Shown: one piece after another, positions 3,009 to 6,230 of the stretch
How the letters are laid out: every line of letters starts with the position of its first letter
Position numbering within the stretch: the stretch's first letter is position 1
Source of the DNA: Candidatus Saccharimonadota bacterium
GTDB lineage: Bacteria; Pseudomonadota; Gammaproteobacteria; Enterobacterales; Enterobacteriaceae
Direction: 5' to 3'
NCBI RefSeq assembly: GCF_012571795.1
Contig: NZ_CP046223.1
Span: 1 to 6,337, forward strand
DNA: 6,337 nt
The notes under the pieces: model-generated
Database searches by the model: none
The model's input: the letters and a program-made list of their open reading frames with translations, nothing else
What the model was told of the DNA's origin: nothing
Made by a program: the position numbers and the translations under genes

Positions 3009-3098
3009 ATGAAAAAATTATTTTTCTATAAAAAAATATTGCAAAAAACAGTTATTTTAGCTATAGCATTATTTTTATTTCATACTAAATTATTTGCT
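3009..3098 (+). other. Predicted Sec signal peptide of the polygalacturonase (…LFHTKLFA | EDKRHVQEP)
   Basis: Basic N-terminus (KK..KK), the hydrophobic stretch TVILAIALFLF, and an A at -1. The predicted mature N-terminus aligns with the mature N-terminus of PehA. Confidence 0.65.
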
Positions 3099-4283
3099 GA
3101 AGATAAACGTCATGTACAAGAACCAATTATACCTAAAACTTGTAAAATTTTAGAAGCAAATGATCAAGATTCAACAAATATCTTACAACAAGCAATTAAT
3201 GTTTGTGCTAAACAACATCAAATTGTTCATTTAATATCTCATAATAATAAAAATATTTTTTACTCAGGTCCTTTAAATATCCCTTCTTATGGTGGTCTTT
3301 TAATTGATAAAACAGTAATATTAAAATCTATAAATGACCCTAATCTTTATAATATTAATAATAATCAAGATTGTGGTACATTAAATAATTCTGGTAAGGG
3401 ATGTAAACCATTTATTACTATTAATGGTGAAAATAATGGTATTTATGGCAATGGTTATATAGATGGACAAGGAGGGCATATTTTAAAAAATAAAAATTTT
3501 ACCTGGTGGCAATTAGCTACAGAAGCTAAATTAAAAAATAAAAAACAAAATGCTCCACATTTAATTGATATTAATAATAGTAAAGACGTTGTTTTATATA
3601 AAATTCATTTAATAAATTCACCAAATTTTCATATTGTTTCTCATAAAACAAATGGTTTAACAATCTGGGGTATTAGTATTAATACCCCAGCAGATGCACG
3701 TAATACTGATGGTATCGACCCCTCATCTTCACAAAATATAACTATTACACACACTAATATTAGTACTGGAGATGATAATATTGCAATAAAAGCAGGTAGT
3801 ACAGGAGAATCAAAAAATATTAGTATTATAAATAATAATTTTGGATATGGTCATGGTATGTCTATAGGCAGTGAAACACAAAGTGGTGTAAATAATATTT
3901 TAATAACAAATTTATCTTTAATAAATACTACAAATGGGTTAAGAATTAAAAGTGATAGTACAAAAGGTGGATTAGTAAATAACATATATTATAAAAATAT
4001 TTGCATGTTTAATGTTAAAAATCCTATTGTTTTAGATGCATTTTATAAAATTGTAAAAATAAATGGGGAACATATTCCTCAATTTAATAATATATATTTT
4101 GAAAATATTAGTGTATTAACACCAGGGCAATTTGTTTTTAATGGTTTTGATGTTAATCATATTATACAAGTTTTTTTTAAAAATATACATATACATCCTG
4201 GATCTATATGGACAAAACATAATGTTCATATTAATGGATCTATAAACTATGATACTAATGCAGATCATTGCCCTAATATGTAA
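3009..4283 (+). CDS. pehA: Secreted endo-polygalacturonase, glycoside hydrolase family 28 (PehA-like pectinase)
   Basis: All GH28 signatures are present and in frame: NTDGID (3702-3719), GDD in TGDDNIAIKAG (3768-3776), GHGMSIGS (3849-3872) and RIK in GLRIKS (3942-3950). The protein is collinear end to end with my recollection of Pectobacterium carotovorum PehA, for example EPIIPKTCKIL vs EPKTPSSCTTL, GKGCKPFIT vs GKGCDAFIT, IDGQGG, KQNAPHLIDINNSK vs KQNTPRLIQINKSK and LINSPNFH in both. Confidence 0.93.
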   Translation: MKKLFFYKKILQKTVILAIALFLFHTKLFAEDKRHVQEPIIPKTCKILEANDQDSTNILQQAINVCAKQHQIVHLISHNNKNIFYSGPLNIPSYGGLLIDKTVILKSINDPNLYNINNNQDCGTLNNSGKGCKPFITINGENNGIYGNGYIDGQGGHILKNKNFTWWQLATEAKLKNKKQNAPHLIDINNSKDVVLYKIHLINSPNFHIVSHKTNGLTIWGISINTPADARNTDGIDPSSSQNITITHTNISTGDDNIAIKAGSTGESKNISIINNNFGYGHGMSIGSETQSGVNNILITNLSLINTTNGLRIKSDSTKGGLVNNIYYKNICMFNVKNPIVLDAFYKIVKINGEHIPQFNNIYFENISVLTPGQFVFNGFDVNHIIQVFFKNIHIHPGSIWTKHNVHINGSINYDTNADHCPNM

Positions 4284-4288
4284 TTTTA

Positions 4289-4936
4289 TTAAGGAGAATT
4301 AATTACAATAAAACGAGTTTTATTATTAATAATATTAGATATATTATGTTTTATTACATATAAATTATAGAACTTAGCTGCTATTTTATTACTAATAGCA
4401 GCTAAGTTACTATTTGTGTTACAGAATGATATATATTGTAATGCATAAGAAGAACTAGAAGAATATTTAATATTCCATGAATATTTCTTAATAAACATAC
4501 TACATTGCTTTAATGGTTGAGGGTGACTAATAATGGTTGTAATATTATTTAAAATTAAATTATTGTTATTACTAATTAAACAATGGTTAATAGGCATATC
4601 AAAATAAAAGAATATTTTTACACTATTTTTTTGTATCAATGTATATACATCTTTTATTATACCAGTATAATTATTTATTAAAGGCACTATAGAATAGTGA
4701 GCAACTTTTAATTTTAGAGTATGAAATATTTCTATAAAGTTATTACAAATAATATTAATAATAATATCTGTATTGTTTTTTAAATGTTTTTTTATATAGT
4801 ATAGAGTTGCTAAATGTGAATAACTACCAATAGGTCCTAAAAAAGAAAAAGTAATAATATTATTACTTTTTCTAAATTCTTTATTATTTAATAAAGAATT
4901 ATACTGTATATATAAAATATTATTTTTAATAGACAT
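4289..4936 (-). CDS. pheA: Prephenate dehydratase catalytic domain only (PheA P-protein derivative lacking the chorismate mutase and ACT domains)
   Basis: FLGPIGSYSH (4814-4843; E. coli FLGPKGSYSH), IVPLINNYTGIIKDVY (E. coli VVPIENTSSGAINDVY), ISHPQPLKQCSMFIKKY (SHPQP at 4514-4528; E. coli YSHPQPFQQCSKFLNRY) and the catalytic TRF motif (4310-4318). The ORF ends 6 codons after TRF. Only about 27 aa precede the PDT domain. Confidence 0.8.
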   Translation of the reverse strand: MSIKNNILYIQYNSLLNNKEFRKSNNIITFSFLGPIGSYSHLATLYYIKKHLKNNTDIIINIICNNFIEIFHTLKLKVAHYSIVPLINNYTGIIKDVYTLIQKNSVKIFFYFDMPINHCLISNNNNLILNNITTIISHPQPLKQCSMFIKKYSWNIKYSSSSSYALQYISFCNTNSNLAAISNKIAAKFYNLYVIKHNISNIINNKTRFIVINSP

Positions 4937-5029
4937 AAAATTTATATTAATAAATATTTATTTTTATAAAAATTTATTATTTAAAATAACATACAAATAT
5001 ACTAAAAACAAAATTAAAATATAAAAATA

Positions 5030-5920
5030 TTATTTTTTAATTATATGCACAAAATCATTCTTATCGATCCAACATTTCCATCCTGTTGCTTTATTGACAT
5101 CTAATAATGATTTTTTTAAATTTTGTCTAAATTTCCATAATAATTTAGTTGTACTACCACATAATTTATTTAATGTACTTACTTTATAACACAAAGGAAT
5201 TTTATGTGAACAATAAAAACAATGTATCCATTGAGATAAATATTTGCCTTTTAATTGTTTTCTTTCTTTTAAAGAAATTGCTGTCCACATTTCATCAGTA
5301 AAAAATGTTACTATCTTCTTATTTAAAACAATAACATGTTTTTTATTATTATTAATATTTCTATACCATTCATGTAATAAATGACCTATATAAAAACTAT
5401 TCTGATAACTAATTTCTATAACACATATAGATAATCTTAATAAACAAGATTTTAACCATTTATAATCTTTAGTCCCAGTACTTCTATCTATAGAACGTAA
5501 AAATGAATAAGTAGAAAATTCTACTTTATCACCTATAGGAACAGTATACCTATGTAAACATTCTAACCAAACATCTAAATCTGATTGATCTAATTGTTCT
5601 CCAGTAAAACGTATATATATACCCTGTAAAGAAAATTTTAAAATATTTTTTTCATATTTACGCTGTCCTTTCTTAATAACACTAAATAGAGAACTACGTA
5701 ACATAATATTAGGAATCACTCTCTTACTGTGTGATAAAAATGGTATAACATTATTATTTTCGTCATAATCTAAATGATAATTAACATTTTTTTTTGATTT
5801 ATAACGTACTAAGACTGATTTATCTTTAGCATTATTGCTAAAGCAATAATGCTTATTGTTATCATTATAGTTCGCTTTTTGAACTAAAGAATTTATTCTA
5901 TCGTATATTGATTTACACAT
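5030..5920 (-). CDS. trfA: Plasmid replication initiator, TrfA family
   Basis: IPNIMLRSSLFSVIKKGQRKY...IRFTGEQLDQSDLDVWLECLH and LSQWIHCFYCSH..P..YKVSTLNKLCGS...LWKFRQNLKKSL match the conserved TrfA blocks as recalled (PN..LRSALF...R.Y...I.YTG..LDQ.DLDVW and LAQWLH.FY.SH..P...KVETL..LCGS....FR..L..AL). The gene lies 140 bp from a tandem iteron array. Confidence 0.85.
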   Translation of the reverse strand: MCKSIYDRINSLVQKANYNDNNKHYCFSNNAKDKSVLVRYKSKKNVNYHLDYDENNNVIPFLSHSKRVIPNIMLRSSLFSVIKKGQRKYEKNILKFSLQGIYIRFTGEQLDQSDLDVWLECLHRYTVPIGDKVEFSTYSFLRSIDRSTGTKDYKWLKSCLLRLSICVIEISYQNSFYIGHLLHEWYRNINNNKKHVIVLNKKIVTFFTDEMWTAISLKERKQLKGKYLSQWIHCFYCSHKIPLCYKVSTLNKLCGSTTKLLWKFRQNLKKSLLDVNKATGWKCWIDKNDFVHIIKK

Positions 5921-6047: not shown

Positions 6048-6060
6048 TAGATTTAATCAT

Positions 6061-6170
6061 CAGGATAGCAAGTAGCAATAATCAGGATAGCAAGTAGCAA
6101 TAATCAGGATAGCAAGTAGCAATAATCAGGATAGCAAGTAGCAATAATCAGGATAGCAAGTAGCAATAAT
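6061..6170. repeat. Replication-origin iterons: five perfect tandem 22-bp direct repeats (CAGGATAGCAAGTAGCAATAAT)
   Basis: Units start at 6061, 6083, 6105, 6127 and 6149. All are identical and contiguous with no spacers. Each unit contains two TAGCAA half-sites 7 bp apart. The array is adjacent to a TrfA-family rep gene. Confidence 0.9.
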
Positions 6171-6230
6171 CATTTATAATCATTTATAATCATTTATAAT
6201 CATTTATAATCATTTATAATAATTTATAAT
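6171..6230. repeat. Five perfect plus one degenerate tandem 10-bp repeats (CATTTATAAT); probable DNA-unwinding element of the origin
   Basis: Perfect copies sit at 6171, 6181, 6191, 6201 and 6211, with a variant AATTTATAAT at 6221. The repeats are 90% A+T, have a period close to one helical turn and directly abut the iterons. Confidence 0.75.

Follow-up and report, generated by a model that had tools for sequence, protein, structure and literature searches.

The window analyzed here (contig NZ_CP046223.1, 6337 bp) is the complete plasmid of the gut symbiont of the reed beetle Neohaemonia nigricornis, and a pheA-derived gene on its minus strand probably encodes a functional prephenate dehydratase (PDT) with no second activity. 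The plasmid has ~20% GC and four genes, and Table 1 of Reis et al. 2020 (PMC7289800) gives 6337 bp and 20.1% GC for the plasmid of this symbiont. Comparative analysis makes it quite likely that the 215-amino-acid (aa) open reading frame (ORF) descends from an enterobacterial P-protein, which joins chorismate mutase (CM), PDT and ACT domains, and that CM and ACT were lost before the reed-beetle symbionts diversified. Both the gene and its position on the plasmid are known from the literature, where the name given is inaccurate, and comparably stripped forms occur in other symbionts.

In the proposed division of labor, the CM_2 domain of the chromosomal TyrA would convert chorismate to prephenate, and the plasmid PDT would turn part of this prephenate into phenylpyruvate by dehydration and decarboxylation. 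With tyrB absent, the transamination of phenylpyruvate to phenylalanine (Phe) would probably fall to the host or to another aminotransferase. Lacking ACT, the protein would have no allosteric L-Phe site, so the Phe branch would be freed from end-product inhibition, which would suit a nutrient-provisioning symbiont. As the only PDT, the gene would also make the small TrfA/iteron plasmid indispensable. We infer the catalytic activity and the sharing of steps with TyrA. Loss of allosteric feedback, which an earlier note on this DNA had expected of the enzyme if active, is a sound inference by analogy with engineered E. coli PheA, which is active and Phe-insensitive without its regulatory (R) domain (PMC5427144; PMC2089068).

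The ORF begins at the first ATG past an in-frame stop codon. Its product contains the motifs FLGPIGSYSH (residues 32–41), SHPQPLKQC (137–145) and TRF (207–209), followed by IVINSP and a TAA stop. The only Pfam match was PF00800 (E 7e-42; 143.7 bits against a cut-off of 25.2), and the same scan of the 215-aa protein found no CM_2 (PF01817) and no ACT domain. The Pfam miss for ACT is uninformative alone, as E. coli PheA itself reaches only E 0.05, and the case for ACT loss is made by length and end point. Specifically, residues 13–212 matched positions 89–283 of the 386 in the NCBIfam P-protein model (PRK10622, NF007910), which places the start in the CM–PDT linker and the end at the PDT/ACT boundary; the equivalog score of 145.3 bits lay below the cut-off of 577. 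The earlier note had described a PheA reduced to its PDT core, with a linker start, intact FLGP.GSYSH, SHPQP..QC and TRF motifs and a stop six codons past TRF, and had called for a check against PF00800, PF01817 and PF01842. Pfam, NCBIfam and the ORF bounds all bear this description out, with PDT as the only domain.

The ORF could not be extended in either direction, as trfA ends 93 nucleotides (nt) before the ATG and the stop codon of the polygalacturonase (GH28) gene lies 5 nt past the PDT stop. When E. coli and Buchnera segments were used as queries in composition-corrected tblastn, no CM or ACT remnants appeared on eight symbiont plasmids in any frame (best E at least 2.4), and the PDT segment was recovered on all eight at 5e-23 to 1e-37. 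The corrected search replaced one without composition correction, which was discarded after the Buchnera queries gave hundreds of low-complexity, AT-rich pseudo-hits. A 215-codon open frame would arise by chance in this base composition with a probability of ~2e-9, and the non-genic ORFs of the window are all ≤65 aa. The earlier note had also considered that correcting a sequencing frameshift might recover an ACT-coding frame. No such frame was found, and a hidden frameshift was ruled out by the GH28 stop 5 nt away, the null tblastn result and the end point shared by eight independent assemblies.

Reis et al. 2020 (PMC7289800) labeled the plasmid gene "bifunctional chorismate mutase/prephenate dehydratase". 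Judged from the predicted proteins, this label is contradicted, as none of the orthologues carries a recognizable CM_2 or ACT domain. The RefSeq name, "prephenate dehydratase domain-containing protein", is accurate, and KEGG gives the gene no orthology assignment in the EMBO Rep 2025 tables (PMC12508126). Since the plasmid gene is not a bifunctional CM/PDT, the chorismate mutase step must come from TyrA, and correcting the label alters the pathway reconstruction for all 26 reed-beetle symbionts.

Conservation, selection and predicted fold

The orthologue set comprised eight symbionts of four host genera (Neohaemonia, two Macroplea, four Donacia and Plateumaris), including the basal Plateumaris split. 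All eight orthologues are intact ORFs of 215–229 aa that start at a linker-equivalent position and stop at E. coli-equivalent residues 284–287. The truncation point, which the earlier note had suggested comparing among related strains, is thus conserved and is kept across the deepest split of the host subfamily. The order trfA–PDT is likewise common to 8/8 Donaciinae symbiont plasmids; it was recovered by megablast and tblastn searches against plasmids in two Enterobacteriaceae endosymbionts, those of Macroplea mutica and Plateumaris pusilla. According to Reis et al. 2020 (PMC7289800), the plasmids of all 26 species carry the gene, and its phylogeny agrees with that of the chromosome.

Selection was assessed on close pairs only, because YN00 synonymous distances (dS) were saturated for divergent pairs and NG86 dS reached a plateau of ~0.6–0.8 under the extreme AT bias. 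The ratio of nonsynonymous to synonymous differences per site (pN/pS) was 0.19 for M. mutica vs. M. appendiculata and 0.44, 0.45 and 0.41 for the pairs among three Donacia. It was below 1 in all four close pairs (Fisher p 1.5e-10 to 9e-5). The NG86 omega was 0.16–0.40 for the PDT gene vs. 0.15–0.21 for trfA.

When Donaciinae, Buchnera and E. coli sequences were aligned, the residues corresponding to E. coli T278, N160, Q215, S208 and F280 proved invariant, and the counterparts of the first four in the window are T207, N88, Q144 and S137. Zhang and co-workers are said to have assigned these E. coli residues their roles in 2000, T278 as catalytic and N160, Q215 and S208 as substrate-binding. The T and F of the TRF motif were invariant in all aligned sequences. 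An AlphaFold2 model of the 215-aa protein reached a predicted local distance difference test score (pLDDT) of 92.6 and a predicted template modeling score (pTM) of 0.87, with a pLDDT of 72–83 in the N-terminal extension. These 30 residues differ in length and sequence between species. The top Foldseek matches of the predicted model were PDTs (2qmx, 6vh5, 3mwb and 2qmw; TM scores 0.71–0.76), and the comparison with 2qmx gave E 1e-16, a query TM score (TMq) of 0.75 and a root-mean-square deviation of 2.3 Å. The predicted protein therefore has, in the model, the two-lobed periplasmic-binding-protein-like fold of solved PDT catalytic domains. The gene is thus real and conserved, and it is almost certainly functional.

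Pathway context, expression and alternative explanations

The chromosome of the M. mutica symbiont encodes aroF, then a 371-aa TyrA and directly after it rluD, and its pheA slot is empty. This TyrA carries a full CM_2 domain (profile 1–79 of 80; E 5.9e-21). The D. piscatrix symbiont has the order aroF-tyrA-bamD-rluD, with a 60-nt spacer between tyrA and bamD and again an empty pheA slot. Since the corresponding order in E. coli is aroF-tyrA-pheA-pheL-raiA-bamD-rluD, the ancestral pheA slot has been erased in these relatives. In the gene table of Reis et al. 2020 (PMC7289800), which covers 26 chromosomes, the sole chorismate mutase is the TyrA beside aroF, and no chromosomal PDT is listed. The same paper reported perfect synteny of the chromosomes, absence of tyrB, and retention of the shikimate route, including aroF and tyrA, and inferred that Phe synthesis is retained in reed-beetle symbionts. 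In EMBO Rep 2025 (PMC12508126), tyrA was assigned to K14187 (CM/prephenate dehydrogenase) in four species. As reported, the plasmid copy is the only PDT of the cell.

The earlier note had proposed searching the host chromosome for a second pheA, for tyrA and for a separate chorismate mutase. This search delivered the CM-bearing tyrA in M. mutica and the empty pheA slot in M. mutica and D. piscatrix, and for N. nigricornis it came down to the published table. An AT-restricted DNA pattern for the AroF motif EKPRTTVGWKGLINDP matched 72 genomes, one of them a Donaciinae symbiont whose locus ends just inside tyrA. A query with the 40 N-terminal residues of TyrA gave no match, and AroF of the N. nigricornis symbiont was not in the contig index. 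As a separate observation, the M. mutica symbiont (locus L076, 10187–11330) is missing bamD from the position between tyrA and rluD, unlike the D. piscatrix symbiont. Its rluD was called as two overlapping ORFs (10396–10653 and 10572–11330), which suggests a frameshift or decay.

Published RNA-seq data contain low counts for the PDT gene. Normalized counts in the M. mutica symbiont were 125 for PDT, 5513 for GH28 and 6694 for trfA, and those in the D. marginata symbiont were 19–22 for PDT, ~1400–1600 for trfA, ~6000 for the adhesin and 126–132 for the chromosomal tyrA (EMBO Rep 2025, PMC12508126). PDT mRNA was 44–70 times below plasmid neighbors such as trfA and ~6 times below tyrA in D. marginata; differences in gene length (≤2-fold, or ~4-fold for the adhesin) are too small to account for these gaps. 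The orthologue, labeled pheA, was transcribed in that study, with significantly higher levels in larvae in two of four species, so the PDT gene is not wholly unregulated. The gap to trfA arises across a short distance, as trfA is co-directional and lies only ~90 nt upstream, and no terminator or conserved promoter was identified in the spacer at 4937–5029. Each plasmid carries one copy of the PDT gene, which is not tandemly duplicated.

These data bear on the proposal of the earlier note that a multicopy plasmid amplifies the gene adaptively, so that a higher gene dose increases PDT and drives unregulated flux to Phe, as on the Buchnera pLeu and pTrp plasmids. We consider such amplification unlikely. 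PDT counts far below those of trfA, GH28 and the invasin-like adhesin, and below that of tyrA in D. marginata, speak against it, as do the single gene per plasmid and the replicon type, TrfA/iteron replicons being usually of low to medium copy number. In its favor, a rate-controlling biosynthetic gene on a small plasmid formally resembles pLeu/pTrp, all 26 symbionts have kept the plasmid (PMC7289800), and the EMBO Rep authors (PMC12508126) mention plasmid copy-number variation, in general terms, as a possible regulatory route; neither their paper nor Reis et al. 2020 gives a copy number. Given the low mRNA in relatives, the single gene copy and the larval rise in mRNA, multicopy amplification and unregulated overproduction are unsupported, and plasmid location should not be taken to mean overexpression. 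Reis et al. 2020 (PMC7289800) suggested an essential gene as the reason for plasmid retention, and this fits the data better than dosage does.

Two further accounts question the function itself. The gene could be a decaying remnant, a pheA pseudogene fragment that happens to stay open, as the earlier note had allowed; the loss of two of three ancestral domains, the fast evolution, the low mRNA and the missing KEGG assignment would fit. This account is very improbable and fails on conservation: eight lineages spanning the deepest host split all keep an intact ORF that ends at the same place (at a chance of ~2e-9 per lineage), pN/pS is significantly below 1 in every close pair, the catalytic residues are invariant and the predicted fold is confident. 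Moreover, no other PDT is reported in genomes in which Phe synthesis is nevertheless inferred to be kept. Alternatively, the PDT fold may have been neofunctionalized, for example as an arogenate or cyclohexadienyl dehydratase, a non-aromatizing prephenate decarboxylase or a GqqA-like acyl-homoserine-lactone acylase. PDT-fold proteins of other activity do exist, GqqA is among the structural matches, amino-acid divergence is rapid and the motif Arg is lost in orthologues. We still regard a new function as improbable, as the protein is closest to enterobacterial and Buchnera P-proteins, none of the PDT catalytic residues varies, and the pathway would otherwise have no PDT even though the remainder of the shikimate pathway is retained along with aroF and tyrA; genomes of 0.45–0.5 Mb would also seem to have no obvious use for quorum quenching.

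Several observations weigh against a functional, monofunctional PDT and temper our confidence in that reading. The PDT gene is the fastest-evolving gene of the plasmid, with 47% amino-acid identity between Neohaemonia and Macroplea compared to 67–69% for GH28 and trfA, and the Arg of the TRF motif, present in the window, is N or K in the other seven of the eight orthologues. In solved PDT structures, part of the dimer interface is formed by the ACT domain, and a mutation at the ACT interface inactivated the PDT homologue GqqA; by analogy, the ACT-less protein could be less stable or less active. To these are added the low PDT mRNA in relatives and the scope of the chromosomal evidence, which consists of M. 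mutica, D. piscatrix and published tables and reaches the N. nigricornis symbiont itself through table and synteny.

Plasmid and gene layout

The features of the window are listed in Table 1.

Table 1. Features of the 6337-bp plasmid, with positions counted from the first letter of the window.
Feature	Position	Strand	Evidence or remark
Inverse-autotransporter/invasin-like adhesin, 965 aa	1–2898	+	IAT_beta, BIg21, C-terminal InvE adhesion domain
GH28 polygalacturonase	3009–4283	+	PF00295, E 2.9e-60; convergent, 3' end abuts PDT stop
PDT-only gene, 215 aa, pheA-derived	4289–4936	−	ORF and PF00800 only
Stop codon at PDT/ACT boundary	4289–4291	−	E. coli-equivalent residue 286; 5 nt from GH28 stop
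PDT catalytic domain, complete, residues 31–214	4295–4846	−	Pfam profile 2–178 of 181
T-R-F motif, residues 207–209	4310–4318	−	Thr is the equivalent of E. coli PheA catalytic T278
Perfect 15-bp inverted repeat, 8-nt loop	4371–4408		Inside 3' part of PDT ORF, ~90 nt past GH28 stop
N-terminal extension, 30 residues	4847–4936	−	From ~residue 13 aligns to CM end and CM–PDT linker
trfA–PDT spacer, 93 nt, presumed promoter and 5' untranslated region	4937–5029	−	
trfA replication initiator	5030–5920	−	PF07042, E 6.8e-13; co-directional, directly upstream of PDT gene
Probable origin of replication (oriV)	6055–6230		22-bp iteron x5.4 (6055–6172), 10-bp AT-rich repeat x6.5 (6166–6230); Tandem Repeats Finder

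The window has the features of a TrfA/iteron (IncP-like) theta replicon, namely a TrfA initiator, direct-repeat iterons and an adjacent AT-rich region. The iteron unit AATAATCAGGATAGCAAGTAGC, in 5.4 near-perfect copies, is followed by the 10-bp AT-rich unit ATAATCATTT, upstream of and divergent from trfA, and Tandem Repeats Finder gave 98% matches for the oriV repeats. The trfA–PDT spacer contained no clear Shine-Dalgarno sequence, was poorly conserved, and had promoter-like matches no more common than in shuffled sequences. No Phe-rich leader peptide was evident upstream of the PDT gene.

The inverted repeat within the PDT ORF is terminator-like on both strands, and three such sites were found vs. 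0.1 expected. The hairpin is strong (~−21 kcal/mol) in two plasmids, those of Neohaemonia and D. semicuprea, and weak in most of the rest, and a conserved bidirectional terminator was rejected because it is strong in only two of the eight species. The repeat might terminate transcription of both convergent genes, or it may result incidentally from the palindromic peptide LAAI..IAAK.

The GH28 orthologue of the M. mutica symbiont is an active enzyme (Reis et al. 2020, PMC7289800). GH28 is absent from the D. semicuprea symbiont plasmid, where a spacer of ~370 nt (locus L082, 2449–2818) lies between the PDT stop and the adhesin; the same spacer measures only 2–60 nt in the other Donacia plasmids that lack GH28. 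The longer spacer is possibly a remnant of the lost pectinase gene. The adhesin is carried on the plasmid of a 0.47-Mb obligate symbiont, and transcript counts for its D. marginata orthologue rank among the higher ones, which suggests a role in host-cell attachment or entry.

Stripped P-proteins in other systems

Relatives were sought among 1.84 billion representative proteins, followed by look-ups of names and genomic context. The nearest relatives of the PDT protein outside the Donaciinae symbionts were Buchnera P-proteins, and the best NCBIfam model was that of the P-protein, with an alignment reaching into the linker. In Blochmannia CP010049 (locus L084, 3001–3603), a 200-aa PDT-only gene occupies the ancestral bamD-pheA-tyrA-aroF slot, and a 200-aa PDT-only gene sits in the same slot in the related Logan assembly ERR13948499 (L085, 2119–2721). 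Blochmannia floridanus encodes a 298-aa PDT-ACT protein without CM (L059, 3156–4052). The Blochmannia PDT-only gene has the same architecture and C-terminal end point as the plasmid PDT and stands beside a CM-bearing tyrA. It is chromosomal and in its ancestral slot, whereas Donaciinae symbionts have an empty slot and carry the gene on the plasmid. Taken together, the Blochmannia genes form a graded, intermediate series of PheA domain loss.

In the Buchnera chromosomes OZ060412 and OZ060376 (L083, 2694–3573; L087, 2203–3334), pheA is split into a separate CM ORF (97–102 aa) and a PDT ORF. One of these genomes (L083) has a 97-aa CM ORF, then a 190-aa PDT-only ORF with ffh 63 nt later, the ACT domain being deleted outright, and another has a 102-aa CM ORF and a 277-aa PDT-ACT ORF. 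The PDT-only ORF of some Buchnera measures 182–190 aa and ends at the same boundary as the plasmid PDT, and all PDT-only forms found end 3–10 residues past the T-x-F motif. Buchnera has no tyrA (PMC1173090). Its PheA genes are chromosomal and keep CM, either fused or as a 97–102-aa ORF directly upstream; the Donaciinae symbionts, in contrast, have lost the PheA CM altogether and would depend on TyrA. Among the stripped forms found here, CM is absent only where a CM-bearing tyrA adjoins. Desensitization of Buchnera PheA through an altered regulatory domain was proposed by Jimenez et al. 2000, as that paper is cited in PMC5737371, so both Buchnera PheA and the plasmid PDT are endosymbiont P-protein derivatives thought to be Phe-desensitized. 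In our literature search we found no description of outright loss of ACT and CM in a symbiont PheA, and neither Reis et al. 2020 nor the EMBO Rep 2025 paper mentions truncation, ACT or feedback.

These cases raise the idea, to which we give an even chance, that stripping of the P-protein is a recurrent and rule-governed outcome in symbionts: ACT would have been lost independently in reed-beetle symbionts, Blochmannia and some Buchnera, CM would be shed only where TyrA supplies one, and the plasmid would be fixed by the gene it carries. If true, Phe-branch enzymes would repeatedly become constitutively active, with ACT always lost at the same domain boundary, and a minimal gene moved to a plasmid would keep that plasmid and its pectinase and adhesin cargo fixed through the radiation of the host. 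The pattern would be convergent, with allosteric domains deleted outright and redundant catalytic domains shed according to the neighboring gene.

Within the E. coli P-protein (CM-PDT-ACT), the PDT domain is homologous to the plasmid protein, with 36% identity over 183 residues and the same catalytic residues. The isolated E. coli PDT segment 101–285 approximates the natural plasmid protein, which covers profile positions 89–283. Zhang, Wilson and Ganem reportedly found in 1998 that this isolated domain is likewise active and Phe-insensitive. The engineered PheA* and pheA-ev2 keep CM and lose the R domain; the plasmid PDT is natural and is also without CM. Compared to E. coli PheA, this predicted PDT is plasmid-borne, extremely AT-biased and divergent. 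It may be a natural counterpart of the feedback-resistant truncated PheA of metabolic engineering, in the form of a minimal PDT of ~215 residues.

Like pLeu and pTrp of Buchnera, the reed-beetle plasmid is a small replicon of an obligate insect symbiont that carries an important gene for amino-acid biosynthesis. Relocation from chromosome to plasmid is shared with those plasmids, but raised dosage or expression is unsupported, the mRNA being low in relatives and the gene single copy on the plasmid. The reed-beetle plasmid also carries, unlike pLeu and pTrp, a pectinase and an invasin-like adhesin.

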